Positions 11,443 through 62,813 of a DNA stretch of 64,000 bases are shown here, one piece after another. A program made the position numbers and the translations under genes. The DNA comes from an uncultured Candidatus Binatia bacterium. Lineage in GTDB: Bacteria; Desulfobacterota; Binatia; HRBIN30. Location of the stretch: positions 97,994 to 161,993 of the forward strand of contig CAZGEJ010000003.1 in assembly GCA_964524885.1 (NCBI GenBank), given 5' to 3'. Positions within the stretch are counted from its first letter, which is position 1. Each line of letters opens with the position of its first letter. Below the pieces are notes generated by a model. The model was not told the DNA's origin and searched no databases. It saw only the letters and a list, made by a program, of their open reading frames with translations.

Positions 11443-11553
11443 CGGAAGTTCCTCCTCTCGACGCGGGCGCGGGTGCCGCGCGCCGGGTACCTGCCTCGTA
11501 GCAGATACGAACGCCGGCGTAGAGGAAAAGGGCCCCCCCGGCCAGCGCTGGCG

Positions 11554-12381: not shown

Positions 12382-12459
12382 AACCGCACGCCCCGTGGTG
12401 CCCTCTCGGCGTCGCTGCGCCGCAACGGGAGGTCGTGCCGGCAGCGCGTGGTTGGGCCC

Positions 12460-14174: not shown

Positions 14175-17100
14175 ATGGCCGACAACGAAGTTCGCGGACC
14201 GAGCGGCGACAACGAATCAACCGCAGGCCTGCTTGGCCTGCCGGCCCAGTTCGTCGCCGCGGTGCGCAACGCCATGGACATCGCCCGCATGGGCCAGGTC
14301 GAATCGGACACCAAGACCCCGTACGAGGTGGTGCACCGCGAGCCGACCTTCGCCCTCCGGCGCTATGGCGCCGGCGAAGCCCACGGCGCTCGCGGCGCCC
14401 GCCCGGTCGTCCTGCTCGTGCCGCCCCTGATGATCACCTCCGAGGTCTACGACATCAGCTCCGATGCCAGCGCCGTGCGCTTCCTGCTCGATCGCGGCAT
14501 CGACCCCTGGGTCGTCGACTTCGGCGCCCCCGAACGCCAAGAAGGCGCCCTGCAGCGCACCCTCACGGATCACGTCCTCGCCTGCAGCAAAGCCGTCGAT
14601 CGCGCCTGCGCCGCGACGGGCCGCAAGGTCCACATCGCCGGCTACAGCCAAGGTGGCATCTTCGCCTACCTCGCGGCGGCCTTTCGTCGCGGCGACGGCC
14701 TCGCCTCGATCATCACCTTCGGCAGCCCGGTCAACGTGCATAGCCAGGTGCTGCCGGGCGTCCCCGACGAGGTCTTGGTGCCGATCATCGAAAGCCTCGG
14801 GCCGGTGCTCGCCACCGGCTTTTCGCGCTCGGCCGTGCCGGCGTGGTTGACGCGCAACACCTTCCGCCTGCTCAGCCCGACCAAGGCGATTCAGAACCAG
14901 ATCGACTTCCTGCGCTCGCTCAGCGACCGCGACGCCCTGGCGCGCAAGGAGGGGCAGCGCCGCTTCCTCGGCGGCGAGGGCTTCGTCGCCTGGCCGGGTC
15001 CGGCCTTCGGCGAGTTCATCGAGCAGATGATCATGGGCAACCGGCTGTTCTCCGGCGGTTTCGTCGTCGAGGGGCAGACCGTCACCATGGCGGACATCAC
15101 CTGCCCGGTGCTCGCCTTCAGCGGCGAGAACGACGACATCGCGCGACCGCCGACGGTGCGGTCGGTGGCGGACGCTGCGCCGCGCGCCGAACTCTGGGAG
15201 GCGAGCATCGTCGCCGGGCACATGGGCCTGGTCGTCGGCAGTCGCGCCATGCGCCAGACGTGGCCCACCGTGGCCGAGTGGATCTTCTGGCGTGAAGGCC
15301 AGGGCGAACGGCCGCGCCTCGTCCATCCTCTCGGCAGCGACGAGGCCGAAGCGGCAGCACCGGAGGGTGAGGACCCGACCCCCTCGGGTTGGCTCGGCAC
15401 TGCCGAGGCCGTCAGTCGCGATGCCCTGAGTCTCTTCTTCGGCGCCGCCAGCGAGGGTGCCGAAGCGGTCGTGCGCTTGGGCAACAACCTCACGCGCCAG
15501 CTACCGCGCCTCGTCCGCCTCGAGGGCCTGCGGCGTGACACGCGCGTCGGCTTGGCACTGACCCTCGCCGAACAGGCCAAGGCCAACCCGGACGACACCT
15601 TCTTCCTGTACGAAGGACGGGCCCATTCCTTTGCCGACGCCGACCGGCGCGTCGACGCCATCGTACGCGGGCTCATCCACATCGGCGTGCGCGCCGGCGA
15701 TCACGTCGGCGTCTTCATGCTGACCCGGCCGACGGCGCTCGCCGTCGTCGCGGCGATCAACCGGCTCGGCGCCATCGCCGTGTTGTTGCGCCCGGAAGGC
15801 GATCTCTCCGCCGAGCTGCAGGTCGGCGGTGTCGAACACCTGATCGCCGACCCGGAAAACGCCGGCGCCGCGGCAACCGAATGGTCCGGCACGGTTTACG
15901 TGCTCGGGGGCGTCAACACGCGCCACGGCGCCTTGCCGCCGAGCGCCGTCGACATGGAGAAGATCGACCCCGCCGCGGTCGCGGTGCCCGACTGGTATAC
16001 CCCCTCGCCTGGGCGCGCCGAGGAGGTGGCGTTCCTGTTCTTCGCCGGCCACGGCGAGAACCTGCGCGCCAACCGCATCACCAACCGCCGCTGGGCGTTG
16101 TCGGCATACGGCACCGCCTCCGCCGCCGCACTGACCTCGGCCGATACCGTCTATTCGTGGACCTCGCTGCAACATCCGACCGGCCTGCTGGTTTCGGTCA
16201 GCGGCGCGCTCGCCGGCGGCGCCCGCCTGGCGATGGCGCACGGCTTCGACGCGCCGGCCTTTTGGGGCGAGATCCGTCGCTACGGCGCGACCGTCGTCTT
16301 CTACGCCGGCATCATGCTGCGCGAACTCGTCGACGCGCCGCATGATGTCGCCGAGCGCAAACACCCGGTGCGCCTGTTCGCCGGCTCGGGCATGCCGCGC
16401 CCGTTGTGGCGTCGTGTCGTCGAGCGGTTCGGCCCCGTCGACGTGCTCGAGTTTTATGCCACCACCGAGGGCAACGCGATTCTCGCCAACGTCTCCGGCA
16501 AGAAGGTCGGCTCCTGCGGCCGCCCCATCCCCGGCAGCGCCGCGGTGCGTGTCGCCGCCTGGGATCTGGCCACGGGCGGACCGGTCTACGACGCCGCGGG
16601 CTACGTGCGGGCCGCCGAGCCCGGCGAGCCGGGGATGTTGCTCGCCGAAGTCGAACGCGAGCGGGGCGCGCTCGCGGGTAAACCGATGCGCAACGCCTTC
16701 ACCCGCGGCGACGCATGGAGCGCCAGCGGCAGTTTGTGTGTCGCCGACGCCGACGGCGACCACTGGCTGCGCGACCAAATCAGCGACGTCATCCGCCATC
16801 GACGCGGCGTCTTGCTCGCTGCGCCGATCGAGGAGGCGCTGTGGGAGTTGCCCTTCGTCGGTGCGGCGGCGGCCTACGGGCTGCGCTTGCTCGGCGTCGA
16901 GCACGAGGTCGTCGCCGTCGCCTTGTTGCTGCGGCGCGAGGGTCTCGACCCCGAAGCCGTCACACAAGTCCTCATCGACCGGCTCGACGACGCCGCGCGC
17001 CCGGTGGTGTTGCGGCTGGTCGACGAATTGCCGCTGACGGCCGGCTACCGCGTCGTCAAGTCGGCCTTGCGGGAGCAAGGCCTGCCGCGCAACGAAATCG

Positions 17101-19308: not shown

Positions 19309-19491
19309 GATTCGTTCGAGTCTGGTCGACCCTCGTCGCGATGGCAACCACGTACCGCGCGCAGCGAACGCGACGGCGCGCCATCCCCGAAAGGCCAGCG
19401 ATGTAGGCGAGCGACCCGCCACGGCTTCGCCGCGAAATAGCCATTGACTTCGCTGCCCTCGGGCGGTCTGTTGAGGCACAGCCAGGTTGCC

Positions 19492-21624
19492 ATGTCGAAT
19501 TCGCTGCGTTCGTACCTCACGTCGGTCCCCCTCCTTGCCGTGCTCGTGGGCCTCGGCCAAGCGCCTCCTTCATTGGCGGCACCTTGGCTCGCCGTCGGCC
19601 CGGAGGGCGCACCCGTCTTGTCGATCGGAATCGAGAGCGGCAGCAACACCAACCTCGTCGCCACGGTGCGCGATCGCGGCCTACTCCGCAGTGTCGATGG
19701 TGGCGCGTCGTGGCAGGAGGTAGTCAGCAGTCCGTCGCCGGCACTGCGCGTCGCGGTGCATCCGAGCAATGCGGCGCTGGCGGTGAGTACCGCGTCACAG
19801 GTGTGGTTTCGCCTCGCCGGCGACAGCCGCTGGCTGGCGTCGAAACTGAGCCCCGCCGACGTGATCGCCATCGGGCCGGGCGAGCCGGTCAGCGTGTACG
19901 GCGCGCGCGGCAGCTCGATCCAGCGCGCCATCGGCGAAGGGGCGGCGGTTTCCATCGCCGACGGACTGGCTGGCGCGCGCGTGCGCACGCTGCGGTTCGA
20001 CCCCATTCGCCCGACACGCCTGTACGCCGGGACCAACGACGGGCTGTTCCTTTCGCAGGATCGAGGCACGAACTGGTCCCGCGCCGGCAACGCCCTGGCG
20101 GGCGTCGACATCGTCGCGGTCGCCACCGATCCCCGCCAAGCGAGCCGGCTGTTCGCCGGCGGCAGCGACAGCGGCGTGTGGCGCAGCAGCGACTCGGGGG
20201 CGACGTGGGTTCGCATCAACGACGGGTTGGCCGACCTGCGCATCCGCGACCTGGCGGTCGACGGCAGCGTCGCCGGTCGAGTGTGGGCGGGCACCGAGGA
20301 CGGCATCTTCGTTTCGAACGATCACGGCGCTTCGTGGAGCCGTGCCGACCTCGAGCCGCGAGCGCCGGTCCTCGGCGTGGTCGCCGGCGCAGCGGGCGGT
20401 CTAGCGTACGTCGCCACCAGCACGGGCCTGGTGGTCACCGACGATGCCGGAGCGAGTTGGCAGCCGGCCAACGGCGGCTTGCTGGCGACGACGGTCACGG
20501 CTCTGCAGATGCTCGGCGACGACCCGCGCGAGGTCGTCGCCGGCACCTCCGGCGGAGTCTTCGTCAGCTTCGACGCGGGCGGGCAGTGGTCTAGCTTGAA
20601 CGAAGGCCTACGCAGCCCGCTGGTGCAGGATCTCGCCATGGTCGGCACGGACCTGTTCGCCGCCACGCTGGCCGGGGCGTGGCGCCTGCCCGGCTTGGGG
20701 CAGGCGTGGTCGCGCTTGAACGGCATCACCAATCCGGCGGTGACCTCGGTGGTGGCCGACGGGGCGCTGGCGGATCGGCTCTACGCCGCGACCGCCGGTG
20801 GGGGGATTTTCCGCAGTAGCGACGCCGGTGCCACCTGGCGCGCGGCCAATACCGGCGTCAGCAGCCTGTTCCTCACCCGACTGGCAGCCGTGCCGGGGGT
20901 CCCAGGAGAAATCTACGCCCTCGCCGCCAACCAGGTGATCGTCACCCGCAACGGCGGCGACAGCTGGACGGTCGCCGGCCCTCTGCCCGCAGGGACGATC
21001 GCGGACTTGGTCGTGTCGCCGCACGCGGCGTCACTCTTGTTCCTCGCCACCTCGACCGGCGTGCGTCGCAGCCGCGACGCTGGACAGAGCTGGCAAGAAA
21101 CCGGCTTGAGCGGGCTGAGCGTCGAGTCGCTGCTCGCCTCGGCACGTGCGCCTGGACTGGTGTACGCCGGCCTGCGCGGCGGCAGCATCCGCGTCAGCTT
21201 CGACGACGGCACCAACTGGCAGAGGCTGGGTGGGGCCGGACCGTTGGGTTCAGTTCTCACCATGGCCGAGGCCGCGGACGGCAGCCAATTCTTCGCCGGG
21301 ACGCGCGACGCCGGCGCCTGGGTCGCGCAGCAACTCTGCGGCGACGGTGAACTCGACCCCGGCGAGACCTGCGACGATGGCGGCAACGGCAGTTGCCCCG
21401 CCGGCTGCGGCGCGACGAGCCGCTGCGTCGGCGACTGCAACGGCAGCGGCGACGTCACCGTCGACGAGATCGTCCGCGGGGTGTCGATCGGCTTGGGCAT
21501 CGCCGAAGTCGGGGGCTGCACGGCGATGGATCGAAACGGCGACCGACTCGTCACCGTCGACGAGATCATCGCCGCCGTAGCCAACGCCTTGGGCGGCTGT
21601 CGCGACGCGACGTTGGCGAACTGA
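19492..21624 (+). CDS. Secreted BNR/Asp-box beta-propeller protein (about 10 repeats) with a C-terminal dockerin-like double EF-hand module
   Basis: Signal peptide (MSNSLRSYLTSVPLLAVLVGLGQAPPSLAAP). Ten S-x-D-x-G-x-[ST]-W repeats (SVDGGASW, SQDRGTNW, SSDSGATW, SNDHGASW, TDDAGASW, SFDAGGQW, SSDAGATW, TRNGGDSW, SRDAGQSW, SFDDGTNW). C-terminal GDCNGSGDVTVDEIV...DRNGDRLVTVDEII. Confidence 0.7.
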   Translation: MSNSLRSYLTSVPLLAVLVGLGQAPPSLAAPWLAVGPEGAPVLSIGIESGSNTNLVATVRDRGLLRSVDGGASWQEVVSSPSPALRVAVHPSNAALAVSTASQVWFRLAGDSRWLASKLSPADVIAIGPGEPVSVYGARGSSIQRAIGEGAAVSIADGLAGARVRTLRFDPIRPTRLYAGTNDGLFLSQDRGTNWSRAGNALAGVDIVAVATDPRQASRLFAGGSDSGVWRSSDSGATWVRINDGLADLRIRDLAVDGSVAGRVWAGTEDGIFVSNDHGASWSRADLEPRAPVLGVVAGAAGGLAYVATSTGLVVTDDAGASWQPANGGLLATTVTALQMLGDDPREVVAGTSGGVFVSFDAGGQWSSLNEGLRSPLVQDLAMVGTDLFAATLAGAWRLPGLGQAWSRLNGITNPAVTSVVADGALADRLYAATAGGGIFRSSDAGATWRAANTGVSSLFLTRLAAVPGVPGEIYALAANQVIVTRNGGDSWTVAGPLPAGTIADLVVSPHAASLLFLATSTGVRRSRDAGQSWQETGLSGLSVESLLASARAPGLVYAGLRGGSIRVSFDDGTNWQRLGGAGPLGSVLTMAEAADGSQFFAGTRDAGAWVAQQLCGDGELDPGETCDDGGNGSCPAGCGATSRCVGDCNGSGDVTVDEIVRGVSIGLGIAEVGGCTAMDRNGDRLVTVDEIIAAVANALGGCRDATLAN

Positions 21625-21734: not shown

Positions 21735-23729
21735 ATGCGACGATTGGGAGCCGTGCGCGGCTGGAAGTTCGTGTTGGTTATGAGCGTCGCCCTGGCGCTG
21801 CCGGTCGCGGCCGGTGCGGAGGACTGCGGCGAGGGTAGCTACGACAGCACCTTCGAGCTGATCCAAGACGTCGTCTTCGAGAAATACGGCTGCACGACCG
21901 CGGTCTGTCACGGGGTTTACGCGGCCGGCGGACTCGACCTGTCGCCGGCCGTGGCCTACCGCAACCTCGTCGACCAAGTGGCGACGACGGTTCCGGGCAT
22001 CAGCCGCCTGTTGCCCGGACAGAAGGACCAGAGCCTGCTGTGGCTCAACCTCGCGGCCAAGACGCTGCCGGAGGAAGTGCATGCGCCGCTGCGCCCCATG
22101 CCCCTCGATCCGGTGCCGGCACTGACGCCGGACCATCTGGAGTTGATGCGCGCCTGGATCGAATCCGGCGCCCCGGAAACCGGCACCGTCGCCGCGGCGG
22201 TCGGCCTGGTCGACGCCTGCCTACCGGCGCCCGAGCCGCTCACCGTAGAGCCGTTGCCGCCGCCCGCCCCGGGCAAGGGCGTGCAGGTGCGCATGCCTCC
22301 CTACGAACTGGGGCCGCAGAGCGAGCGCGAAACCTGCTTTGCCAGCTGGATCGACCTCACCGACCAGGTGCCGGAACAATATCGCGGCGCCGACGGCAGC
22401 ACCTTCCGCTTCAAGCTCAACCGCGTGCGGCAGACGCCGATGAGCCATCACCTGATCGTCAGCATGTACGAGGGCACAGCCTCGCCCGACGATGACCGGT
22501 GGGGCGAGTTCTTCTGCGCCGGCGGCGACAAACATGGCCAGCGATGTGCGCCGACCGACCTCGACTTTTGCGGCGACGGACTGTGCTCGACCATCCCGTC
22601 GAACAGCATTGCCTGCACCGGCTTCGGCCCCGGCGACTCCGGCCTCGGCATCGCCTCCTCGGGCTTCAGCGGCACCCAGGAGACGGCCTCGGAATTCCGC
22701 TTCGCCGAAGGGGTCTACGGCGAGTTGCCGATGCGCGGCATGGTCTTGTGGAACTCGCACGTCTTCAACCTCACGGACAAACCCGGCACCCTCGAGGCCT
22801 GGCTCAACTTCGAGTTCGCCGAACCGGAAGAACAGTTGTACCCGGCCCGCACGATCTTCGACGCCAAGGACATTTTCGCCACCAACGCGCCCGCCTTCTC
22901 CACCGACGAACCGTGCAGCCTGCACGAGTTGCCGCGCAACGCGCACCTGTTCGAGCTGAGTTCGCACGGCCATCGCCACATGAAGCGCTGGCGCACCTAC
23001 ATCGGGGCGTTCACCTGCCAAGGCGGCCCAGCCGTCGGCCAGGCCTGTTCCCCCCTCGGCTACGACTTCGATAGCCGCGACGTCTGCGAAGGGTTCCCCT
23101 GCGCGGCGCCCGAACGCGCCCACGTCGGCGACTGCGACGCCAGCGGCGACGTCACCGTCGACGAGGTGCTCACGGCGGCCAACATCGCCCTCGGCAGCAG
23201 CCCGATCGGCCGCTGCGTCGACGCCGACCGCGACTTCGACGACGTCATCACCGTCGATGAGCTGCTGACGGCAGTCAGCGCGGCGCTGACCGGCGTGCCG
23301 GCGACGACGCTGCGGGATGCCTCGGACAGCTTGGTGTACACCAGCCTGATCTACAACGACCCGGTGGTGCTGCGTTTCGACGACACGCCGCTGGTGTTCG
23401 CCTCGCACTTCCCTGAGGAACGAACCCTCACCTATTGCGCTCTCTTCGACAACGGACGGATCGATCCGACCGAGGTGAAGCGGCGCAGCACGTCACCGCC
23501 ACCGCCGGCCGACGTGCTGCCGGTCGGAGGCCCGTGTGACGAACCGACCCACTGTACGGACGGCAAGGTCGGCGAACCCTGCGTCGGACGCACCGAGCGG
23601 GCCCGCCACGCCTCGTGCGACAGCACTCCGGGCGCCGGTGACGGCATGTGCGACGCCTGCACCCTGACGGGCGGGGTGACGACGGAGGACGAGATGTTCA
23701 TTCTGATGGGGCAGTATTACGTGCCGTAG
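21735..23729 (+). CDS. Secreted His-rich monooxygenase-like protein, paralog 1 (tentatively PHM/DBH-like copper enzyme), with CX4CH motif and an internal dockerin-like module
   Basis: Signal peptide; YGCTTAVCHG; MSHHLIV (HH); NSHVFN; SSHGHRHMKRW (HxH...M). GDCDASGDVTVDEVL...DADRDFDDVITVDELL inserted before a Cys-rich C-terminal domain. 60-70% identical by eye to the downstream paralog. Confidence 0.55.
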   Translation: MRRLGAVRGWKFVLVMSVALALPVAAGAEDCGEGSYDSTFELIQDVVFEKYGCTTAVCHGVYAAGGLDLSPAVAYRNLVDQVATTVPGISRLLPGQKDQSLLWLNLAAKTLPEEVHAPLRPMPLDPVPALTPDHLELMRAWIESGAPETGTVAAAVGLVDACLPAPEPLTVEPLPPPAPGKGVQVRMPPYELGPQSERETCFASWIDLTDQVPEQYRGADGSTFRFKLNRVRQTPMSHHLIVSMYEGTASPDDDRWGEFFCAGGDKHGQRCAPTDLDFCGDGLCSTIPSNSIACTGFGPGDSGLGIASSGFSGTQETASEFRFAEGVYGELPMRGMVLWNSHVFNLTDKPGTLEAWLNFEFAEPEEQLYPARTIFDAKDIFATNAPAFSTDEPCSLHELPRNAHLFELSSHGHRHMKRWRTYIGAFTCQGGPAVGQACSPLGYDFDSRDVCEGFPCAAPERAHVGDCDASGDVTVDEVLTAANIALGSSPIGRCVDADRDFDDVITVDELLTAVSAALTGVPATTLRDASDSLVYTSLIYNDPVVLRFDDTPLVFASHFPEERTLTYCALFDNGRIDPTEVKRRSTSPPPPADVLPVGGPCDEPTHCTDGKVGEPCVGRTERARHASCDSTPGAGDGMCDACTLTGGVTTEDEMFILMGQYYVP

Positions 23730-23731
23730 AG

Positions 23732-23770
23732 AGGCTTAGGCTTAGGCTGAGGCTTAGGCTGAGGCTGAGG
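23732..23770. repeat. Tandem hexamer array (GGCTTA/GGCTGA), about 6.5 copies, immediately 3' of monooxygenase-like paralog 1
   Basis: The sequence directly after the TAG stop reads gaggcttaggcttaggctgaggcttaggctgaggctgagg. Confidence 0.9.
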
Positions 23771-23840
23771 GGCGTTGATCGGGTGGGACTTCTGGGTCAA
23801 CATCCGAGATCATTCACGTTCGTTGGACCAAGGAGATTCC

Positions 23841-25829
23841 ATGCGGATTCGCGACTTCGCGGTAGGGGCGATGGCCGCGGTCCTGCTCGGCACTGGGCCA
23901 GTCCTCGCCGAGGACTGTGACCCGGAGAGCGCCGGCAGTACCTGGCAGCTCATCCAGAGCGCCATTTTCGAGAAGAACGGCTGCACCACGGCCATCTGCC
24001 ACGGCAGCGTCGCCGCCGGCGGCGGCTTGGACCTGTCGCCCGCGGTGGCTTACGACAACCTCGTCGACGTCATGGGCGGCAGCGTGCCGACCATCCGTCG
24101 CGTCTTCCCCGGTGAGAAGGACCGCAGCTTGTTGTGGCTCAACCTCGCCGCCAAAACGCTGCCCGACGAATACACCGCGCCGCTGCGACCGATGCCGGCT
24201 GATCCGCTGCCGGCACTGACCGAAGACGAGCTCGAACTCGTGCGCCTGTGGATCGAGGGCGGCGCCCCGGAAGAGGGGACTGTGCGCGGCACCGAGGACT
24301 TCGATCCCTGCCTCCCCGAGCCCGAACCGATCCCCGTCAAGCCGCTGCCGCCGCCGGCCCCCGACGAGGGCTTCCAAATCCGCATGCCCCCCCGGCCATT
24401 GCCGCCGAACAGCGAGAGTGAAGTCTGCTACGCCACCTACTACGACGTCAGCGCCCAGGTGCCGGAGAAGTTCCGCGGCCCGGACGGCACGACCGTGCGC
24501 TACAAGCGCAATTCGATCCGCCAGGACAGCTCGAGCCACCACCTCATCGTCAACCTGTACGAGGGCAGTTCCGGCGTCGACGACCCCGAGTGGGGCGCCT
24601 GGAAATGCCGCGGCGGAGCGCGCGAAGGCCAGGCCTGCAACCCGCTGGACCTAGGCGTGTGCGGTGAGGGCGGCGAGTGCGCCACGCCCGTCGTGTCGGG
24701 GGTGGCCTGCATCGGCTACGGCCCGCCGGACGCCGGCACCGGCCTGATGAACGCCGGACTCTCCGGCTTGCAGGAGTCCGCCGGCACCTTCGAGTTCGCG
24801 CCGGGCGTGTTCCGCGAGATGCCGCTGAAGGGCATCATCCTGTGGAACTCGCACGCCTTCAATCTCGACGCTCAGCCGAGCAAGGTCGAAGCCTGGCTCA
24901 ACTTCGAGTTCGCCCAACCCGAAGAACAAGAGGCCGAGGCGATGCAGATCTTCGGGGCCGACGAAATCTTCAAGATGAACGCGGAGCCGTTCCAAACCGA
25001 CGAGCCGTGCAACATCGAGATCCTGCCGCCCAAGGCACAACTCTTCGAACTCAGCTCCCACATGCACCAGCGCGGCAAACGCTGGCGCACCTTCCTCGGC
25101 GCCTTCCGCTGCGAGGGTGGACGCAACACCGGAGCCCCGTGCTCGCCGCTGGGCTACGACTTCAGCAGCCGCAATCCCTGCGGCAACAACGGCCGCTGCG
25201 TCTCGCGCGTGCGCAGCCGCGCCGGCGACTGTAACCGCAGCGGCGACGTCACCGTCGATGAGGTCATCACCGGGGTCAACATCGCCCTGGGCACCGCCTC
25301 GGTCGACACCTGCTTCGACGCCGACCGCGACTACAGCGAGTCCGTCTCGGTCGACGAGGTCGTGACCTCGGTCACGGCCGCCCTGCAAGGCGTGCCGCCG
25401 GCGGTCGAGCGCAACCCCGAGGAAAGCCTGCTGTACACGAGTTTCGTCTACAATGACCCGGTTTACGTCCGGTACGACCCACCGATGGCGTTCCCCGGCC
25501 GCGGTTCGGAGGCGGACGAACGCGCCCTCACGTACTGCGCCCTGTACGACAACGGGCACACCGACCCGGCGACGGTAAAGCGCAAGTCGACCTCGCCGAA
25601 TCCGCCAGTGAGCTTCCCCGGCATCGGCGGCCCCTGCGATACCCCGAGCCACTGCACCGAGGGCAAGGTCGGGGCCGAGTGCAACGGCCGCACCGAGCGG
25701 GCGCGCGATGCCTCGTGCGACAGCACCACCGGCGCGGGCGATGGCCGCTGCGACGCGTGTACGCTCACCGGCGGCGTGACGACCGAGGACGAGATGCTGC
25801 TGCTCCTCGGCCAGTACTTCGTGCGCTGA
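23841..25829 (+). CDS. Secreted His-rich monooxygenase-like protein, paralog 2
   Basis: Same architecture: NGCTTAICHG, SSHHLIV, SSHMHQRGKRW, GDCNRSGDVTVDEVI...DADRDYSESVSVDEVV, and the same C-terminal Cys pattern (CTEGKVGAECNGRTERARDASCDSTTGAGDGRCDACTLTGG). AAGGAGA RBS before the ATG. Confidence 0.55.
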   Translation: MRIRDFAVGAMAAVLLGTGPVLAEDCDPESAGSTWQLIQSAIFEKNGCTTAICHGSVAAGGGLDLSPAVAYDNLVDVMGGSVPTIRRVFPGEKDRSLLWLNLAAKTLPDEYTAPLRPMPADPLPALTEDELELVRLWIEGGAPEEGTVRGTEDFDPCLPEPEPIPVKPLPPPAPDEGFQIRMPPRPLPPNSESEVCYATYYDVSAQVPEKFRGPDGTTVRYKRNSIRQDSSSHHLIVNLYEGSSGVDDPEWGAWKCRGGAREGQACNPLDLGVCGEGGECATPVVSGVACIGYGPPDAGTGLMNAGLSGLQESAGTFEFAPGVFREMPLKGIILWNSHAFNLDAQPSKVEAWLNFEFAQPEEQEAEAMQIFGADEIFKMNAEPFQTDEPCNIEILPPKAQLFELSSHMHQRGKRWRTFLGAFRCEGGRNTGAPCSPLGYDFSSRNPCGNNGRCVSRVRSRAGDCNRSGDVTVDEVITGVNIALGTASVDTCFDADRDYSESVSVDEVVTSVTAALQGVPPAVERNPEESLLYTSFVYNDPVYVRYDPPMAFPGRGSEADERALTYCALYDNGHTDPATVKRKSTSPNPPVSFPGIGGPCDTPSHCTEGKVGAECNGRTERARDASCDSTTGAGDGRCDACTLTGGVTTEDEMLLLLGQYFVR

Positions 25830-25830
25830 C

Positions 25831-25922
25831 GCGAAGGCTGAGCCAAAGTCCAAGGCTGAGGCTGAGTTCGGAGAGCGGTTTCCGAACCTCAGCCTCAGCC
25901 TCAGCCTCAGCCTCAGCCTAAG
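25831..25922. repeat. Inverted hexamer arrays: (GGCTGA)x2, spacer, (TCAGCC)x5, forming a long hairpin 3' of paralog 2
   Basis: The sequence reads aaggctgag...caaggctgaggctgagttcggagagcggtttccgaacctcagcctcagcctcagcctcagcctcagcctaagcc. The stem has at least 20 bp. It is the same hexamer family as 23732-23770. Confidence 0.9.
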
Positions 25923-26027
25923 CCTTTGCCCCGACCAATTCTGTCGAAATTCTGATTGCCTCGCCCCCCGGCGCTGGCGTAGAACGTAGCGTCGTCTCGA
26001 TCTACGCCGGAACCGAAGGGGGCCTTG

Positions 26028-29000
26028 ATGTTGCTGAACCGACTCCGGTTGGGTTTGCTCGCCACGTGTGTTGCCATTTCCTGGACTGCCCTCGCCGAGG
26101 CGCAGACCCTGACCAAGGGCGACGAATCGTGCCGCTCGACGCTCGCCAAGAGCGTGCTCAAACTCACCCGAACCTCCCTCCGAGAACAGGCCCAGTGCCA
26201 CCGCCTGCGCATGCTCGCGGCCCTGCCCTCCTCGGTAGAATGCAACGACTTCGATAGTTTGCCGGAGAATTCACGCGACAAGATCGAGGGCGTCGTCGCC
26301 AAGCTACGCAGCAAGGCGGCGCGCGGCTGCCGCGCCGCTTCCTTGCCGGCGGGCAACGGCTACACCACCTGCCCGGCGCCCTGCGACGGCATCGCCGTCA
26401 CCAACTACGACGGGGTCGGCTCCTGCCTCGCTTGCCTCGTGCGCGACCGCGTCGACGCCACCGGCGTCATCATTTACGGCACGCCGCCGACGCCGGGCAC
26501 CGAAACCGACGAACAAAGCTGCCAGAACAGCCTCGCCGCCGCCCTCGAGACGCATTTCAAGGGCCGCTTCGGCGAACAGATCCGCTGCCAGAAGAAGCAG
26601 GACAAAGGCAAGCTCGCGGCGGGCATCGACTGCAAAACCTATGACCCCAAAGGCAAGCTGGCGCGCAAACGGGAACAGGGCGAGGCGCAGGTCGACCGCT
26701 GCGTCCTCGACTCCATCGTCGCCCAACTCGACAGCTGCGCCAGCACCCTCCCCGGCGAACGCGCCTGTCTCGGCGATGCCGTCGAGGAGTACTCCGACAC
26801 CCTCTTCGACTACGTCTTCCCGCCCGAGCCCACGCCGACGCCCACTCCTTCGCCTACCCCCGCGCCTCTCGACTGCCGGGACGGCAACGAATGCGTACTC
26901 ATGGAAGTGCAGCCCGGCCCGAGTGAACTCGGACCGACCGACGACGGACGGTCCAGTTGGTACAAGATCACCAACATCGTCGCCTTCCTGGGATTCAACG
27001 CCAACAACGGCTCGAAGGGCAATTTCGAGGTCGGCCCACTGATCTTGGAAAAGGGCCTCAGCCTCGACGGCGACGGACGCACGAGCCTCGTCTTGGCGGA
27101 GCCCGCCATCCTCGGCGCCTCCTTCCCCGCCGCCTCCGGCCGCCCCGGACGCGTGTGCTTCGAAATCACCCAGGTCAGCGGCCAGCCCGGCTGGGTCGAC
27201 TGCAACGGCGGCTCCAACGCCGACGTCAGCCTCAGCATCGACAGCAACGGTACCGCCGCCGCGTCGCCCTCCTCGATCCTCGTCGCCTCCGGCGCGAGCG
27301 ACTCCGGTCCAGGGGCCGCGCTGCTCCACGTCGACATCCGCATCAGCGCAACCACCAACGCGATCGACCCTTGCTCGGCCGCCAATTTCACCAATGCGCC
27401 GGTCGTCCGCACGGCCCTGACGACGGCCACCGCGGTCAGTAGCGTCAGCGAAACGCGCCAAAACGTCGAATCGCCGACGTTCCACCCGAACGCCACGGTC
27501 GACGTCACTCTCACCGGACAGCCCCTCGATTGCGCCAACTTTGGCCCTGGGATGCGCAGCAGCTTCGTCGCTCCGGTCTACGAGCTGGATACGACCCCCG
27601 GGGTCGTCGCCGGCCGTTTCGACCTGGCGGACGTGCTGCGCCTCGACATGATCGCCGCCAATACTGAACCGGGCGCGCCGACGTCGACGCCGACCGAAAC
27701 GCCGACCGAACCGGCTCCCACGCCGACCCCGACGCCCGCCGCGCCCACGCCGACGCCTGAGCCCGTCCTCTGCCCCCCTGGCCTCACCTGCGCCGCCTTC
27801 GACATCCTCCCCGGCTCCGGCGCACTCCTGCCCGTCGACGACGGCGTCTCGACTTGGCTGCGCATCTTCGACTTCACCGGCGGCAGCCTGTTCGCCAATG
27901 CCACCAACGGCGCCTTCGGACCGGGTCCGGTCATCTTCGGCCTGGGCGCCACCGACGGCAACGGCATCGCCCCGCTGCGGTTGGTCGGCACCACCTACCT
28001 CGGCGCCAACTTCGTCAGCGCGGCGCAGGATCTGGGCCAGCAAGGCACGATCTGCGTCAAGCTCGAACCCGATCCCGTCAACGAGGGCTGGATCGACTGC
28101 GACGGCGGTACCAACGGCAGCGCCAGTCTGGCGGTCGACAGCAACCTGTCGAACCCGCCGCCACCCAACCCGGTGCCACTGCTCGACGTGCCCGCCGCCG
28201 CCGACGGCGGCGCCGCCGCGGGCACGGGCGTCGCCCGCATTCTGGCGTCGTTCGTCGTCGCGCCGGCGAATGACGCCGCTTGCAATACCCTCGACTATTC
28301 CAGCTCACCGGTCATCGCTACGGCCCTCACCACCGGCCAGGCCACCAGCTTGGTGACCAACGACGTCATCGACGGCAACGGCCCCGCCTCCGCCGGCGTC
28401 AACCAAACCTCACTCTCCGGTAGCCCCTTCTCCTGTGCCGCATGGGGCGACCCGAATGGAGCCTCGGCCAGCGTCGTCGCCCCGCTCTTCGCCCTCGACT
28501 TCGTCGCCCCGGTGCTCAACCTCACCGTCGACGTGTCGCAGGCCTTCCGCCTACAGCTCGACCCCGTGAATCTGCCGACCGGCGACGAAACGCCGACGCC
28601 GACGCGCACCGACACCCCGACCACGACGCCGACGGAAACGCCGACACGCACGCCGACGCGCACCGTCACCCCGACGCGTACCCCGACGTTCACCCCGACC
28701 GACACGCCGACGGTCACCCCGACCGCCACGCCCACCGAGACACCGACCGAGACGGCGACGCCGACGATCACGCCGACGCCGACGAACACCGCGACGCCGA
28801 CCGCGACCTTCACGCCCTTCGGCCCGCCGGTGCGCAACGTCACCATCATCGACAACACCAGCCAACTGGAACGTGGCACCCAAGCCCTCGGCAACTGCTT
28901 CCGCCGCGGCCAGACCAGTTCTTCCGTCCTATCCTCGACCGGCACCAGCTTCTCGACGCAGTTCCGCTCCAACGTCACCACCGACTGCGAGGCCGTGCCC

Positions 29001-30530
29001 ACCGGCGGCGGCAGCTTCACCGGCAACCTGACGCCGAACTACACGATCCAGTTCGACATCGCCTGCCCGGCCGGCGCTGCCTATACGCTCACCGTCAACA
29101 CCTCCTCGGGCGGTGCCTTGACCGTCAACCGCGACAACGGCGACGGCTGCGATCTGCCCTTCTTCGGCACCACCGACCAGTCGACCGCCTTCATGTCGGC
29201 CATCAGCGGCAGCAATAGCGGCGGGACACTGCAAAGCGCCGGCACGCTCAACCTCGACGCACCGGGTTCGCTGGTCTCCAGTAACGACAGCAACACCGCC
29301 TTCAGCGACAGCAACAGCGCCGTCATCACCGGCGTCGGCACCGGCGCCCCGGTCGCCCACTCGCTCACCTTCAACTGGTCGACCTCCTGCGTCAGCAGCG
29401 GCAATAGCCTCGACACCGGAGCCGAGTGCAGCGTCCGCTTCGGACGTGACTCCGACCTCGAGCCGAACGGCATCTCCGGCTGCATGACGGCCGACGACTA
29501 CCCCGGCGTCGGCAGCCGCTCGACCGCCAGCGACGGCCATATCGTCAGCTTGTCGGCAAGCTGCGGCGCCACGCCCACGCCGACGATCACCCACACCCCG
29601 ACGATCACGCCGACGCCGACGGTCACGCCGACCAACACGCCGACGATCACCCCCGGTGGCCCAACCCTGACACCGACACCGTTGGCCACCGCCACAGCGA
29701 CGGCCACGGCGACCGCCGAACCGCTGGGCACTCTCAACTTCAGCGTCGTCACCGGCCCCGGCGGCAGCGATACCGCCCCCGGCTGCCCAGGTGAGCCTTC
29801 CAACGGCTCGCTCCTCAAGACCCAGGGCAATCCGACCGGCGGCATCCCGGGCACCATCTGCAACGGCACCAAGGGCGACTTCTACATGCTCGGCGGACCC
29901 ATGCAGCTGAGCGGCGGCTCCCCCGACGCCAACGGCATCGCCGATCTCAGCATCGTCGCCCCCGTCGTCGTCGGCGCCAGCCTCCCCGGCTCGACCCCCA
30001 ATTGCAGCAACTGCGACGCTTGCTGGCGCATCGAACAGGATGCCACCGTCGGCTTCGTCGACTGCGACGGCGGCTCCAACGCCAGCGTCTCGGTGACCAT
30101 CGACAGCAACGGCTCCAGTGCCCCGCCCGCCCCCGCCAATGGTCCGTACCTCCTCGGCAGCGGCAATACCGGCAGCGGCGCCGCCGTGCTGAATGCGATC
30201 ATCAAGCGCAAAACCGTCACCGGTTCGTGCCCCGGACCGTCCGACTCGTCCTGGAACTCGCCCGACAGCACCGTGTCGGCGTACCTGGTCACCGGCAGCG
30301 CCACCTCGACGATCGACGACCGCCGCCAGTGCAGCGGCAGCACCTTCGGCACGGCCTGTCCCTCGAACAACCCGTATACGGTGACGCTCAGCGGCACTAA
30401 CCTGAACTGCAACACCTGGGCCGAGAACACCGGTGCACGCTTCGTCGTGCCGTTCCAGAATCTCGACCAGGTCATCGGCGGCAGCTTCGGCAACGGCGAC
30501 ATCGCCCAAGTCCTGCGCCTGAACGACTGA
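26028..30530 (+). CDS. Giant secreted modular protein, 1501 aa, with Thr/Pro-rich linkers and three homologous modules (scaffoldin-like architecture)
   Basis: Signal peptide ([28 protein letters not shown]). Four (TP)n linkers, up to about 75 aa ([23 protein letters not shown]...). Three homologous modules carry the conserved core [VI]C..[IL]...[GW][WF][VI]DC[ND]GG[ST]N[AG][SD][VA]SL[SAT][IV]DSN. They are separated by a distinct Ser/Thr/Asn-rich module. Cys-rich N-terminal domain. Confidence 0.7.
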
Positions 30531-30639
30531 TCTCCGGCCAAGCCTTCGCTACCCAGCGGCCACCGTCAACGACCGTGGCCGCTGGGTGGCGGGGCCCGTG
30601 CGCGTTGACTCGCGCCTCTCGCCGCCACTACAGAGCGGT

Positions 30640-31827
30640 ATGGCCAGCCACAGCTCGAATCGCCAACGCCTGTTCGCCCCCGCCCGCCTCGGGCCGGTCG
30701 AGCTGCGCAACCGTTTCGTCAAGTGCGCCACCTACGAGACGCGCGGCAAAACGGGCCTCGTGACCGACGACCTCATCGCCTGGCATCGCCAATTCGCCCG
30801 CGGCGGCGTCGGCATGACCACCCTCGCCTATTGCGCCGTCGCCGACGACGGCAAGACCTTCCCCGACCAGATCAGCGTCAAGCCCGCAGCCGTTCCCGGC
30901 CTGCGACGCTTCACCGACGCCATCCACGCCGAAGGCGCGGCCGCAGCGATTCAGCTCGGGCATGCCGGTTGGTTCGCCGACCCGTCGGCCACCGGCACCC
31001 GCCCTCTCGGGCCGAGCGCCATGTTCGCGCCCAAGGGCATGACCTGGTCGCGTGCCCTGACGTCGAGCGATCTGGCGCGCCTCACCGACGACTTCGCGCG
31101 CGCCGCGCAGCTCGCCGTCGATGCCGGCTTCGACGCCCTCGAAGTCCACGTCGGCCACGGCTACCTGCTCAGCCAGTTTCTCAGCCCCTACAACAACCGG
31201 CGCCAAGACGAGTTCGGCGGCAGCATCGAAAACCGCGCCCGCTTCCCGCGCCAAGTCGTGCAGGCGGTGCGCCAAGCCGTCGGCAAGCGCGCCGCGGTCT
31301 ACATCAAGCTCAACATGGAGGACGGCTTTCGCGGCGGCCTGACGCGGGACGACGGACTGGAGGTGGCGCGTCTGTTCGAGGCCGACGCCTGCCTCGACGC
31401 GATCCAGCTCACCGGCGGTCACACGACGAAAACACCGATGTTCCTGATGCGCGGCGAGACACCGACGCGCGAATTGGTGCAGATCCAACCGACGCGACTG
31501 AAGCGCTGGATCATGGGTTTCGTCCTGCCCAGGGTGATCCGCAGCTATCGCTTCGAGGAGGCCTTCTTCGAGCCGACCGCGCGCCAGTTCCGCGCCGCCG
31601 TCGGCTTACCCTTGATGCTCCTCGGTGGCGTGACGCAGCTCGCCTCGATGGAACGTGCCATGGATGCCGGCTTCGACTTCATCGCCATGGGGCGCGCCCT
31701 GATCCGCAACCCCGATCTGGTGCGCCGCATGGAAGCCGGCAACCTCGCCGGTAGCACCTGCGTGCCGTGCAACCAGTGCATGGCCTACGTCGGCATCCGC
31801 CCGACCGTGTGCTACCGCGCGCACTGA
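30640..31827 (+). CDS. NADH:flavin oxidoreductase (Old Yellow Enzyme family)
   Basis: HGAHGYLLSQFLSP-type motif (HVGHGYLLSQFLSPYNNRRQDEFGGSIENR) and a TIM-barrel OYE layout. Confidence 0.85.
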   Translation: MASHSSNRQRLFAPARLGPVELRNRFVKCATYETRGKTGLVTDDLIAWHRQFARGGVGMTTLAYCAVADDGKTFPDQISVKPAAVPGLRRFTDAIHAEGAAAAIQLGHAGWFADPSATGTRPLGPSAMFAPKGMTWSRALTSSDLARLTDDFARAAQLAVDAGFDALEVHVGHGYLLSQFLSPYNNRRQDEFGGSIENRARFPRQVVQAVRQAVGKRAAVYIKLNMEDGFRGGLTRDDGLEVARLFEADACLDAIQLTGGHTTKTPMFLMRGETPTRELVQIQPTRLKRWIMGFVLPRVIRSYRFEEAFFEPTARQFRAAVGLPLMLLGGVTQLASMERAMDAGFDFIAMGRALIRNPDLVRRMEAGNLAGSTCVPCNQCMAYVGIRPTVCYRAH

Positions 31828-31832
31828 CGCGG

Positions 31833-32249
31833 CTATTGCAGGACGTGCAGTAGGTTGGCGCGCGTCGCCACACTGGACAGCGGCGTGCGATAGATGGGCA
31901 ACATCGCCAACGCGAACGCGACGACGATCGCCGCCCACACCCACACGCGCAGCCGCGCCGCGCCGAGGCGCGCCCGCCCCCACCGCACCAGGCGACGGAT
32001 GACCAAGGCCAGCAGCCCGGCGTAGAGCAACCCGGGGAGCAAGCTGAAGGCGACGATCAGCCCCGGCACCAGATCGCCCTCGGCCCACCACACCGCCGCG
32101 GTGGCGCCGCCCAGAGCCCCCATGCGCAGCACCGGGGCGAACTCCCACTCGAAGACGAAATAAGGCAACGGAACGGTGAGCAACGCCGTCAGCCACAGGG
32201 CAAAGGTCAAGGCACGCCCTCCCGCGGATGCGTCGCGCGCCGTCATCAT
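31833..32249 (-). CDS. Small integral membrane protein (about 138 aa), translationally coupled to the upstream DUF3604 gene
   Basis: Four hydrophobic segments (ALTFALWLTALLTVPLPYFVF; LIVAFSLLPGLLYAGLLALVI; WVWAAIVVAFALAML). Its ATG overlaps the stop of the preceding gene (ATGA) at 32246-32249. Confidence 0.5.
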   Translation of the reverse strand: MMTARDASAGGRALTFALWLTALLTVPLPYFVFEWEFAPVLRMGALGGATAAVWWAEGDLVPGLIVAFSLLPGLLYAGLLALVIRRLVRWGRARLGAARLRVWVWAAIVVAFALAMLPIYRTPLSSVATRANLLHVLQ

Positions 32250-34168
32250 GGTTGCCCCCCCGAGCCCCGCGGCGCCTGCCACCAGATCGGCGAGGTCCAC
32301 GCCCGCTCCTGGATCACCCGCGGGTAACGCGGGTCGCAGCAGGCGGCGAAGTCGTCGGCAATGGTTTCCGGACGGTCGCAGTCGACCCCGGCCGCGTTGC
32401 ACAAATAGGTGCTCCACCGGCACGACGGGTTCTCGACGACGCGGGCATAATAGAATGCGGGCTGTGCCGAATCGAAGCTCGGATCGCGCCACACCCGACA
32501 TAGCCGGTCGAAGCCGCCGCCGCGCGCTTCGCAGGTGCGTGGATCCACCGACGCGCCGTTGTCCGGATCGCCGGCCACCTCGAACACGCGCTCGTGGGTC
32601 GCGCCGCCGGCATCGACCCAGCCCTTGACGATTTGCACGCGCTGCAGCGGCATCCCGGGACCGTCGGTACCGCCGAGATCGCGCAAAGCCGAGACCAGGA
32701 ACGTGGGGGCCGCGGCGGTGGCCGGCGGCAGCACGCCGCCCATCGGCACGCCGCCGGCATAGCCCTTTTCGATCCAGGCGGGATCGTCGCACAGCGCATC
32801 GGGATACTCCCAGCCGCCGAAGAAGCGCACCACCAGGCGTGGCCCACTGGTGCCGTACGCCTCGCGCCGACGCATGGCGGCGAACAACGCCGGGCGCGAG
32901 TTTTCCTCGGCCCACAGTACGGCCAAGCCGCCGGCGTTGAACTCGATGTCGTCGGGAAGGCCGCGCGGCAATTCTCCCGGCGCGCCGGTGCCCGCACCGC
33001 CGTGGCCGAGATGCGCCGCCTCACGCACGTAGCCACTGGTGCCGAGATGCGTGTCCGTGCTGGCGATCAGACCGAAGGCGAACGGATTGACGCCCACCTC
33101 GCGTTCGAGACGCAGTCCTTCCTTGAGCACGTTGCGAACGAAGCCGATCGCCGGCGGCGCCTCGGCGAGCAAGCCGACGAACTTCCCCTGAAAGTTGTCG
33201 TAGGGCAGCTTCTCGAAACCGCAGAGTTCGTCTTCCGTCTCCGGACCGAGGCGACATTCCGAATCGCCCTTGTGTTGCATCACCTCGACCAGCGGCTCGT
33301 TGGTGATACGTTCGGCAGCCGTCGCCGCCGTCAACGGGCGACCGGCCGCATCGACGCTTTCGAACATGATGCCGCCGCTGAGATTGCTGTTGTGCGGGAT
33401 GCTGACGAAATCACAACCGGCGATGGCATCGTTGCAGGTGGCGCGCAAGCGTCGCCACAGCCCCTCCGGCGTCGGCTCGTCCATGTAGCTCACCGGCAAC
33501 TCGGGCACGGCGGCGTCATTGAATAGGATGTTGCGGTGGATGTTGTTGGTGTCCGGTCCGCCGGTCCATTCGTAGCCGACGAACGAAGTGAAGCGGCACG
33601 CTTCGCTGCGATCGTAGGCGTCCTCGGCGGCTTCGCGCACCTCGCGCCAGGGCGTCCGCGCCGCAGCGAGACAATCCCGTCCTTCCGGCCCGCAAAACGA
33701 GAAGCGTTCCGGCTGGCGCGAGCGCGTCGAACGCGCATTCATGAAGAAGAACGCCAGCCGCGGCCACCAGCGATAGACCCGACAGGTCGCCGAGTCGTAG
33801 CCCGGGCTGCCCGGCGTGCGGCAGAGTTCCAGTTCGCCGAAGAGTTCGGCGTGGTCGGTGACCGCGGCGAAATCGAGAGGGCGATCGAGACGGACGCTGC
33901 GTCGCGGCGTGCCGTCGGCCGCATACGGTTGCAGGCCGATCGTCTCGCCCCGCGCGAACCGGTAGGCGTCGCGCGGCAAATTGCGCGTCCCCTGGGTATT
34001 GGCATCGAGCGAGAGGGCGGTGTGCACGTGCAGGTCGCCGAAGAACGGACGTCGCAGAGCCGTGTGCTCGCGGCACGGAGCGCGCTCCTCGGCGTGCGCC
34101 GACGCGGCGAGGACGAGTGCCGCGAGGGTCGCGCCGAGATGCAGCCGACGGCGAAACGTACGATTCAC
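32246..34168 (-). CDS. Secreted DUF3604-family protein (PHP-like metal-dependent hydrolase-like)
   Basis: Signal peptide (MNRTFRRRLHLGATLAALVLAASAHA), then the GDLHVHTALSLD motif that I recall as the hallmark of DUF3604. About 640 aa. Confidence 0.65.
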   Translation of the reverse strand: MNRTFRRRLHLGATLAALVLAASAHAEERAPCREHTALRRPFFGDLHVHTALSLDANTQGTRNLPRDAYRFARGETIGLQPYAADGTPRRSVRLDRPLDFAAVTDHAELFGELELCRTPGSPGYDSATCRVYRWWPRLAFFFMNARSTRSRQPERFSFCGPEGRDCLAAARTPWREVREAAEDAYDRSEACRFTSFVGYEWTGGPDTNNIHRNILFNDAAVPELPVSYMDEPTPEGLWRRLRATCNDAIAGCDFVSIPHNSNLSGGIMFESVDAAGRPLTAATAAERITNEPLVEVMQHKGDSECRLGPETEDELCGFEKLPYDNFQGKFVGLLAEAPPAIGFVRNVLKEGLRLEREVGVNPFAFGLIASTDTHLGTSGYVREAAHLGHGGAGTGAPGELPRGLPDDIEFNAGGLAVLWAEENSRPALFAAMRRREAYGTSGPRLVVRFFGGWEYPDALCDDPAWIEKGYAGGVPMGGVLPPATAAAPTFLVSALRDLGGTDGPGMPLQRVQIVKGWVDAGGATHERVFEVAGDPDNGASVDPRTCEARGGGFDRLCRVWRDPSFDSAQPAFYYARVVENPSCRWSTYLCNAAGVDCDRPETIADDFAACCDPRYPRVIQERAWTSPIWWQAPRGSGGQP

Positions 34169-62744: not shown

Positions 62745-62813
62745 GTCTGACTTGTCTGACCTGTCTGACTTGTCGGACTTGTCGGACCTGTCGGACGTGT
62801 CGGACGTGTCGGA

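Follow-up and report, generated by a model that had tools for sequence, protein, structure and literature searches.

The window analysed here is a 64,000-nucleotide stretch of contig CAZGEJ010000003.1 (assembly GCA_964524885.1, an uncultured Candidatus Binatia bacterium, HRBIN30). It carries two tandem genes, here called A and B, whose products are reasonably likely to be secreted two-copper monooxygenases of the type represented by peptidylglycine alpha-hydroxylating monooxygenase (PHM) and dopamine beta-hydroxylase (DBH), reduced through a heme c domain fused to the same polypeptide. PHM, DBH and tyramine beta-monooxygenase (TBH) are textbook neuroendocrine enzymes; DBH makes noradrenaline, and PHM makes amidated peptide hormones. 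To our knowledge, the PHM/DBH family is regarded as essentially eukaryotic and ascorbate-dependent. In a literature search, no PHM/DBH-like enzyme was found described that is bacterial or fused to a cytochrome c, a result that is limited to the collection searched and is not proof of absence.

Genes A and B lie on the same strand of chromosomal DNA with a G+C content of about 68% across the window, and Shine-Dalgarno-like sequences (GGGAG and AAGGAG) are situated 6-8 nucleotides upstream of their ATG codons. The open reading frames of 664 and 662 codons, whose products share 59% identity across 641 aligned residues, bear out an earlier note, made from the letters of the DNA alone, that had described two adjacent paralogs of about 660 amino acids. 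That note had also called the proteins secreted, and both indeed begin with what reads as a Sec-type signal sequence with an A-x-A site. In protein A the predicted cut follows AAGA at residue 28, and the N-terminus is modelled as a low-confidence helix (residues 5-21). Each protein has 24 cysteines at aligned positions, which together with the signal peptides fits an extracytoplasmic, disulfide-rich protein.

Every motif that the earlier note had listed is present in both proteins and in the order given, namely, in A, CTTA[VI]CHG at residues 53-60, SHHLIV at 237-242, NSH[VA]FN at 340-345, SSHxHxxxKRWRT at 409-421, the dockerin-like insert at about 463-520 and TEDEM at 650-654. Two details of that description need revision. 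Its conserved Met-containing end was said to run on to LMGQYY, and the TEDEM segment stands, but B instead finishes in TEDEMLLLLGQYF. Likewise, “His-rich” is not an apt label, as there are 16 histidines in A and only 8 in B, six of the latter being predicted copper ligands. Database searches gave no ready assignment for either protein. Pfam and NCBIfam yielded no match to A or B even at E ≤ 10, and sequence searches of the PDB with A alone or with a family profile returned only a nanobody and a calerythrin EF-hand at chance level (E > 0.5).

A structural model of A gave a much clearer answer. The AlphaFold2 model, built on a 61-sequence alignment, has a mean predicted local distance difference test score (pLDDT) of 90.1 and a predicted template modelling score of 0.83, and the ten-residue blocks that contain the candidate ligands average 88 or higher. 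It is helical at residues 39-143, all-beta at 182-423, and beta again at 533-662, where the sheet structure is broken by a Cys-rich loop; further helices fall within 475-519. When this model was compared with 350,542 PDB chains using Foldseek, the top match was human DBH (4zel_B; E 5.5e-8, probability 1.00). Some 13 entries for PHM came next, with E values from 6e-7 to 3e-4, a probability of 1.00 throughout, and PHM-normalised template modelling (TM) scores of 0.36-0.56. The runners-up, viral double-jelly-roll capsid proteins and PNGase F, had probabilities below 0.45 and target TM scores of no more than 0.23. Similarity to the PHM/DBH fold, on which the earlier note had staked its copper monooxygenase suggestion, is therefore found, with DBH and PHM leading the list, and the core of A is by this model a PHM/DBH fold, that is, a two-domain antiparallel beta-sandwich.

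Sequence alignments place five of the six candidate copper ligands of A on those of PHM. For these comparisons we used a rat PHM core sequence identical to PDB 4e4z_A and a PHM alignment of 28 members. Three independent runs of hhalign set H411 and H413 of A on H242 and H244 of PHM, with LFELSSHGHRHMKR opposite VFAYRVHTHHLGK. Once the inserts are taken out and the alignment is extended greedily, GVQVRMP is matched to ALDIRMP and SHHLIV to VHHMLL, so that H238 and H239 fall on H107 and H108. Removal of the inserts also pairs TYCALxDNG with AARCVFTGEG, and the resulting alignments are collinear over 248-278 columns (E 0.005-0.008). At the C-terminus GGVTTEDEMFILMGQYY pairs with IGGTSSDEMCNLYIMYY, where DEM lies on D-E-M314 and M654 corresponds to M314. 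Of the ligand order HH...H...HxH...M that had been read from the letters as that of PHM and DBH, the HH, HxH and DEM elements are in this way aligned to H107/H108, H242/H244 and M314.

The alignment scores also respect the division into two domains. Matched domains score higher than mismatched ones (19.2 for N/N versus 15.3 for N/C; 28.6 for C/C versus 11.6 for C/N), and free shuffling of the PHM columns never reaches the observed score (maximum 22.7 versus 29.0). Against the 28-member PHM alignment, E values range from 0.005 to 0.07 with probabilities of at most 7%. Three of the 61 family members scanned score on the Pfam model Cu2_monoox_C (PF03712) around HxH, all below threshold, the best being P0166 with 15.3 bits against a cutoff of 23.

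Spacing between ligands is preserved in one interval and expanded in two others. H342 and H411 are 69 residues apart, compared with 70 in PHM, whereas the distance from HH to H342 is 103 residues rather than 64 owing to roughly 40 inserted residues. The interval between H413 and M654 spans 241 residues in A, 98 in the minimal member P0200 and 70 in PHM. Its length in A is due to two insertions, a 100-residue Cys-rich and dockerin-like segment after HxH and a 60-residue Cys-rich loop before DEM. Residues that hold the PHM substrate have changed. PHM R240, N316 and Y318 bind the carboxylate and backbone of the peptidyl-glycine; their counterparts in A, according to the alignments around HxH and DEM, are S409, I656 and M658. 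Directly after M314, PHM has a Cys that is a partner in its C293-C315 disulfide, and A has Phe. Because these anchors are not kept, A is not an ortholog of the peptidylglycine hydroxylase, and its substrate is not expected to be a glycine-extended peptide bound in the manner of PHM.

Conservation was assessed with 149 representatives, no two more than 50% identical, that were aligned to the family hidden Markov model with hmmalign; the counts below refer to sequences that cover each site. The five copper-site histidines are kept in 116 of 120 (H238), 115 of 120 (H239), 116 of 120 (H342), 114 of 116 (H411) and 110 of 115 (H413) representatives, and E653 and M654 in 77 of 78. Even those C-termini that hmmalign missed still finish in GGxTTE[DN]EM. 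Mean column identity in broad family alignments is merely 15-34%, so conservation of the ligand positions is selective. Conservation of seven His/Met positions among homologs, which the earlier note had made a test of its suggestion, is observed for these six and also for the His of the CX4CH motif and a further Met, at about 95-99% of representatives.

One paralog departs from this pattern at every copper position at once. P0140, a protein of 1458 residues, has all six His/Met residues replaced (by Q, R, L, F, T and F), and retains the scaffold and the C-terminal GGVTTED motif. Joint loss is what would be expected if the six positions form one functional unit, and the protein, judged from its sequence, is probably a pseudoenzyme. 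The cytochrome domain of P0140 is also absent from the aligned region.

The N-terminal region of A and B appears from sequence comparisons to be a class I cytochrome c domain with an expanded heme motif, and it is predicted to bind heme. C53, C58 and H59 are each kept in 100 of 101 representatives, and M122-P123 in 101 of 106. The earlier note had described the CX4CH motif as invariant. This is true within the close family, but among the 101 distant representatives CX4CH is found in 91, CXXCH in nine (for example NCIGCH, ECVGCH and NCVACH) and CX6CH in one. Three of the nine CXXCH-bearing sequences that were scanned (P0158, P0192 and P0198) match the Pfam family PSCyt1 over its full length with 19.4-21.9 bits against a cutoff of 22, and P0198 additionally matches Cytochrome_CBB3 (E 0.0014). 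The best match of the family to the latter model is by P0155 (E 6.5e-6). Among the 61 members, Pfam matches comprise the heme-binding N-terminus of fatty-acid cis/trans isomerase in seven, PSCyt1 in five, Cytochrom_C in four, Cytochrome_CBB3 in three and PccH in one.

A profile of this domain built from 24 sequences found 17 PDB entries at E ≤ 10, of which 15-16 are c-type cytochromes. FoxE is the best (E 0.0031), and cytochromes c6, c551 and c552 and a cbb3 oxidase subunit are among the others. In every alignment listed, including those with FoxE and cytochrome c6, CX4CH is matched to CXXCH across a gap of two residues. M122-P123 and the following helix LExxRxWIxxGA (132-143 in the model of A) align to the axial-Met segment “gaMPaw...Lsdeei” of cytochromes c6, c551 and FoxE. 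Modelled in isolation (residues 28-165 of A), the domain has a pLDDT of 93.5. These results support the earlier suggestion that CX4CH is a heme c signature akin to that of PSCyt domains, since homologs with CXXCH score on PSCyt1 and Cytochrome_CBB3 and the profile retrieves c-type cytochromes. A review of cytochrome c maturation gives only CX15CH as a variant motif and nothing on CX4CH.

In the scheme that we infer from these features, which extends to the binding of heme and copper, the path taken by electrons, monooxygenase chemistry and the class of substrate, a Sec-exported, disulfide-rich enzyme would combine two redox modules. Heme would be attached covalently through C53 and C58 of CX4CH, with H59 and M122 as axial ligands. 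The first sandwich would hold a three-His electron-transfer copper site similar to CuH of PHM (H238, H239 and H342), and the second would hold an oxygen-activating His-His-Met site similar to CuM (H411, H413 and M654). Single electrons from a periplasmic or extracellular donor would pass to heme, on to CuH and then to CuM, where O2 would be activated and a C-H bond of the bound substrate hydroxylated. The fused cytochrome would in this way substitute for the supply of electrons by ascorbate (or by cytochrome b561/DOMON) in the animal enzymes.

Several observations weigh against this reading. Over all runs the hhalign comparisons with PHM remain below significance (E 0.005-0.18, probability 0.3-7%). 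When PHM was shuffled in blocks of eight columns, the observed score was reached in 10 of 100 trials, indicating that the sequence signal consists mostly of local motifs. H342 sits four to five residues out of register with H172 of PHM, on the equivalent strand. Neither PF01082 nor PF03712 matches A or B at E ≤ 10, and formal membership of these two families, a check that the earlier note had proposed, is not seen, as no score reaches threshold for A, B or the 61 members. Sequence evidence thus corroborates the result from the fold and alone would not suffice; we do not claim homology from it. For the isolated N-terminal domain the best Foldseek match has an E value of only 0.75, small helical apo-cytochrome models being hard targets for fold search. 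This match is to the hydrazine synthase alpha subunit of Kuenenia (5c2v_A; 22% identity over 130 columns), a heme c protein of a planctomycete. CX4CH is also uncommon as a heme attachment motif. Finally, three long contigs that bear homologs have no flanking gene in common, so gene context gives no hint of substrate or partner.

Part of this evidence is open to other explanations. Given the proposed fold and cofactors, the proteins could be extracellular heme-copper oxidases or electron-transfer proteins rather than C-H hydroxylases. Such proteins might oxidise Fe(II), Mn(II), phenols or humic quinols, or reduce O2 or H2O2, with electrons moving from copper to heme. The best PDB match of the cytochrome domain, FoxE, is an iron-oxidising diheme cytochrome; no known monooxygenase substrate site is kept, given the changes at R240, N316 and Y318; and the dockerin-like inserts, PEP-CTERM motifs and DUF4215 repeats of family members hint at proteins placed outside the cell or on its surface. 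However, a His2Met site with an invariant Met (77 of 78 here) is a hallmark of the O2-activating CuM site of PHM, DBH and TBH, and simple electron-transfer or metal-oxidase roles are normally carried out by cupredoxin folds, which makes this explanation unlikely in our view. We give still less credence to the idea that the copper core is real and the N-terminal domain is heme-free, with CX4CH serving as a disulfide or another metal site and a diffusible small molecule or protein acting as reductant, as in the animal enzymes. A and B do lack a canonical CXXCH and a Pfam cytochrome match, the isolated domain gives no significant fold match, and the CX4CH loop has the lowest pLDDT (63-66) within the folded part of the full model, although low values near a cofactor loop are expected in an apo model. 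Near-complete retention of the Cys/Cys/His triplet and of the downstream Met-Pro argues for heme, as do the canonical CXXCH at the homologous position in nine members, the matches of the three that were scanned to cytochrome c families, and a list of PDB profile matches dominated by c-type cytochromes, in which the CH segment and the MP segment both line up.

It is very improbable that these are non-catalytic secreted or surface proteins whose double beta-sandwich is a binding module, similar to PNGase F or to carbohydrate- or protein-binding domains, in which the His and Met residues hold a structural metal. PNGase F and viral jelly-roll proteins do appear on the Foldseek list, disulfides are many, relatives carry adhesin-like accessory domains, and at least one paralog (P0140) persists without any ligand. 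Those alternative folds nevertheless fall far short of the probability of 1.00 obtained for DBH and PHM, a fused cytochrome would have no obvious purpose in a binding protein, and the six ligand positions, split three and three across the domains as in PHM, are near-invariant in a family of such low column identity. The reading that we favour remains that of secreted PHM/DBH-type copper monooxygenases supplied with electrons by a fused heme c.

The family to which A and B belong is large and greatly expanded in Binatia, a globally distributed, uncultured lineage of soils and sediments. Through a word-indexed search we found 367 relatives with a length of about 660 residues, all annotated “hypothetical”; those with a named source come from Candidatus Binatia or bacterium HR30. 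When 1.84 billion cluster representatives were searched exhaustively, 4737 matched at E ≤ 0.001, 533 at E ≤ 1e-10 and 165 at E ≤ 1e-30. With one genome taken per species we located 396 loci, nearly all in metagenome-assembled genomes labelled Binatia or with the older names “Deltaproteobacteria” and “Myxococcales”. Among the best 80 of these 396 loci, individual metagenome-assembled genomes account for nine or more each, and one 11.5-kb contig from JGI carries three family members. The many paralogs per genome point to diversification of substrates. More tentatively, we suggest that these proteins could be self-sufficient, ascorbate-independent monooxygenases in which the CX4CH heme c wires CuH to an extracytoplasmic electron chain, and that the family could have radiated in Binatia, to nine or more paralogs per genome, as a set of tools for oxidising C-H bonds of recalcitrant organic compounds outside the cell.

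The dockerin-like insert is missing from more distant members of the family, whose extracellular accessories are of other kinds. In P0122, P0127, P0133, P0173, P0196 and others, which lie outside the Binatia-type subfamily, the cytochrome and PHM-like core are joined to N-terminal DUF4215 (myxococcal Cys-rich) repeats, PEP-CTERM anchors, PQQ/BamB-type propellers or TIG domains. Judging from these sequence architectures, the combination of cytochrome and PHM-like core seems to behave as a mobile catalytic cassette of surface and secreted proteins.

The relationship to known systems can be summarised for each module. PHM (PDB 1PHM and 4E4Z) and DBH (4ZEL) resemble A and B in having two beta-sandwiches, the ligand order HH...H / HxH...M with a three-plus-three split, and a secreted, disulfide-rich character, and PHM also has collinear RMP, (S/V)HH, HxH-x3-K and GGxxx(D/E)EMxxxxxYY motifs. 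In contrast, sequence similarity is under every detection threshold, the hosts of PHM and DBH are animals or algae rather than bacteria, and A and B have an N-terminal cytochrome c domain where DBH has a DOMON domain and PHM has none. The presumed reductant accordingly differs, being ascorbate in PHM and DBH and the fused heme in A and B. For the N-terminal module, PSCyt1 (PF07635), the N-terminus of fatty-acid cis/trans isomerase (PF06934) and FoxE (5MAB) share with it the signature I-F-x-x-x-C-x-x-C-H-G ... G-G-L-D-L ... P-G ... S-x-L ... M-P ... L-x-x-W-I-x-x-G-A, except that the cysteines of A, of B and of about 90% of the family stand two residues farther apart than in the CXXCH of PSCyt1. 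Heme domains of the PSCyt1 type are also N-terminal in large secreted multidomain proteins, but the partners in known PSCyt1 proteins are domains of the DUF1549/DUF1553 type and not a PHM-like core.

Heme-fused or heme-tethered electron donors are known from cytochrome c-fused copper nitrite reductases and from the cytochrome domain of cellobiose dehydrogenase, which reduces lytic polysaccharide monooxygenases. As proposed for A and B, a heme domain in these secreted or periplasmic systems gives single electrons to a mononuclear copper centre, although the cupredoxin and lytic polysaccharide monooxygenase copper domains have folds unrelated to the core of A and B and perform other chemistry.

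The dockerin-like insert of A consists of two D-x-D-x-x-G-x-V-T-V-D-E loops, each followed by a helix (residues 475-485 and 507-519), and is bracketed by cysteines. Type I dockerins likewise have two tandem repeats of a Ca-loop plus helix, but are appended at the C-terminus, whereas the module in A and B is inserted inside the catalytic domain between cysteines. Database matches to the insert are weak, comprising the calerythrin EF-hand in the PDB, EF-hands in some members and Dockerin_1 in 2 of 61 members (E 3e-4). Only the Binatia-type subfamily has the insert; in many relatives the LYxSxxYNDP strand comes straight after the HxH strand. We found no cohesin partner for the module. A 726-residue BNR/Asp-box beta-propeller of the sortilin-Vps10 type, encoded upstream of gene A, carries a C-terminal module similar to the insert of A and B (47% identity over 73 residues, E 1.7e-13).

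Directly downstream of the three genes whose products bear this module lies a gene for a secreted protein of 1501 residues for which neither Pfam nor the PDB gave a match. Three repeated modules of about 270 residues (285-555, 581-860 and 1234-1501) share 30-35% identity (E values of 1e-20 to 1e-39), and a Pro/Thr-rich linker stands before each of them, in a scaffoldin-like layout. A relative of this repeat protein was found near homologs at only 1 of 83 loci, so the linkage is not conserved; the 1501-residue protein could conceivably act as scaffold in a cellulosome-like assembly.

The other neighbours in the window are ordinary and include genes for a GT4 glycosyltransferase, an Old Yellow Enzyme-type flavoprotein and a DUF3604 protein and, farther away, a P450, a glycoside phosphorylase, mfd, glmS and others. 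Two open reading frames well upstream, of 1055 and 755 codons, have no Pfam match at the thresholds used. The DUF3604 and Old Yellow Enzyme-type genes lie within about 8 kb of a family gene, and an unrelated Binatia contig (L002) also has genes of these two types (4331-6661 and 14819-16828) within that distance of a family gene, a co-occurrence that may be residual synteny or chance. A second family copy was not seen in the available flanking DNA, up to 6-8 kb on either side, at any of 83 homologous loci, and no operon logic was found around homologs. Coordinates of the features discussed are collected in the table.

Short tandem arrays follow both genes, as the earlier note had observed. Matches to the GGCTGA-type array number 11 in the window against 0.08 expected, and they occur only at 23733-23768 and 25848-25930. 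The array after B can form a 106-nucleotide RNA hairpin (-59.2 kcal/mol, z -6.2) and is possibly a terminator or an element similar to repetitive extragenic palindromic (REP) sequences. The arrays are real, but a gene-specific role is not upheld. Unrelated arrays of 7-mers and 9-mers occupy other spacers of the window, and arrays of 6-9-mers with unrelated units lie 3' of the gene at 11 of 81 homologous loci, so we regard the arrays as a genomic habit and reject the idea that they belong to the enzyme system. Micro-arrays in intergenic DNA seem to be found throughout the genomes of this lineage.

Table. Positions of genes A and B, their predicted sites and domains, and other features of the window (position 1 is the first nucleotide of the window).
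Feature	Position	Strand	Description	Basis
Gene A	21735..23729	+	664 residues: signal peptide, cytochrome c domain, PHM/DBH-like two-domain core with inserts	Open reading frame, ribosome-binding site, AlphaFold2, Foldseek
Signal peptide of A	21735..21818	+	Residues 1-28, MRRLGAVRGWKFVLVMSVALALPVAAGA, followed by ED	Read from sequence: basic n-region, hydrophobic core, A-x-A site
Class I cytochrome c-like domain of A	21822..22199	+	Residues 30-155	Helical in AlphaFold2 models; domain profile against PDB; Pfam matches of homologs
CX4CH of A	21891..21911	+	C53-T-T-A-V-C58-H59, predicted covalent heme c site and proximal His	Conservation, CXXCH homologs, PDB alignment
M122 of A	22098..22100	+	In APLRPMP, predicted distal axial heme Met	Conservation, alignment to cytochromes c6/c551
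PHM N-domain-like beta-sandwich of A	22275..22829	+	Residues ~181-365	All-beta in model, hhalign, conservation
Predicted CuH-type ligands of A	22446-22451; 22758-22760	+	H238, H239; H342	
PHM C-domain-like beta-sandwich of A	22830..23726	+	Residues ~366-664	hhalign, weak Cu2_monoox_C, conservation
Predicted CuM-type ligands of A	22965-22973; 23694-23696	+	H411, H413; M654	
Dockerin-like/EF-hand-pair insert of A	23121..23294	+	Residues ~463-520, within Cys-rich insertion 425-527	Loops, helices, weak matches
Hexamer array 3' of gene A	23731..23770	+	GAGGCT/TAGGCT, 6.7 copies	No significant fold
Gene B	23841..25829	+	662 residues, paralog of A	
Motif sites of B	23982-24002; 24537-24542; 24852-24854; 25059-25067; 25794-25796	+	CX4CH; HH; H338; HxH; M652	
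Hexamer arrays 3' of gene B	25838..25930	+	GGCTGA/TCAGCC	Long inverted-repeat hairpin
Open reading frame	6907-10074	+	1055 residues	
Open reading frame	10198-12465	+	755 residues	
BNR/Asp-box beta-propeller	19444-21624	+	726 residues	
Secreted repeat protein	26025-30530	+	1501 residues	
Old Yellow Enzyme-type flavin oxidoreductase	30586-31827	+		
DUF3604 protein	32246-34168	-		
9-mer array	51091-51141		TCCGACAGG	
7-mer arrays	52559-52588; 52613-52642		AGGGCCA and CTTGGCC, inverted pair	
9-mer array	61690-61773		GTCTGACCT, 9.3 copies	
9-mer array	62745-62815		GTCGGACTT, 7.9 copies	

The family described here (4737 representatives, 396 loci) is annotated by no protein family model, and it keeps the predicted fold, the six ligands and its own predicted heme c. 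For PHM, DBH and TBH, two aspects of the mechanism are debated, namely the passage of electrons over the roughly 11 Angstrom that separate two uncoupled coppers and the way in which CuH is fed by the reductant. If our reading is true, the proteins would show how bacteria run PHM/DBH chemistry without ascorbate, and their heme would provide an optical and spectroscopic handle on electron entry into CuH. They would also offer a natural case of heme attachment by CX4CH in a domain with one heme, close relatives of which have CXXCH. On the more tentative view of self-sufficient enzymes wired to an electron chain, noncoupled binuclear copper monooxygenases would have been invented early by bacteria and not by animals or algae. 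Our reading would moreover extend the evolutionary history of the fold, and Binatia would possess an oxidative capacity that has gone unrecognised.

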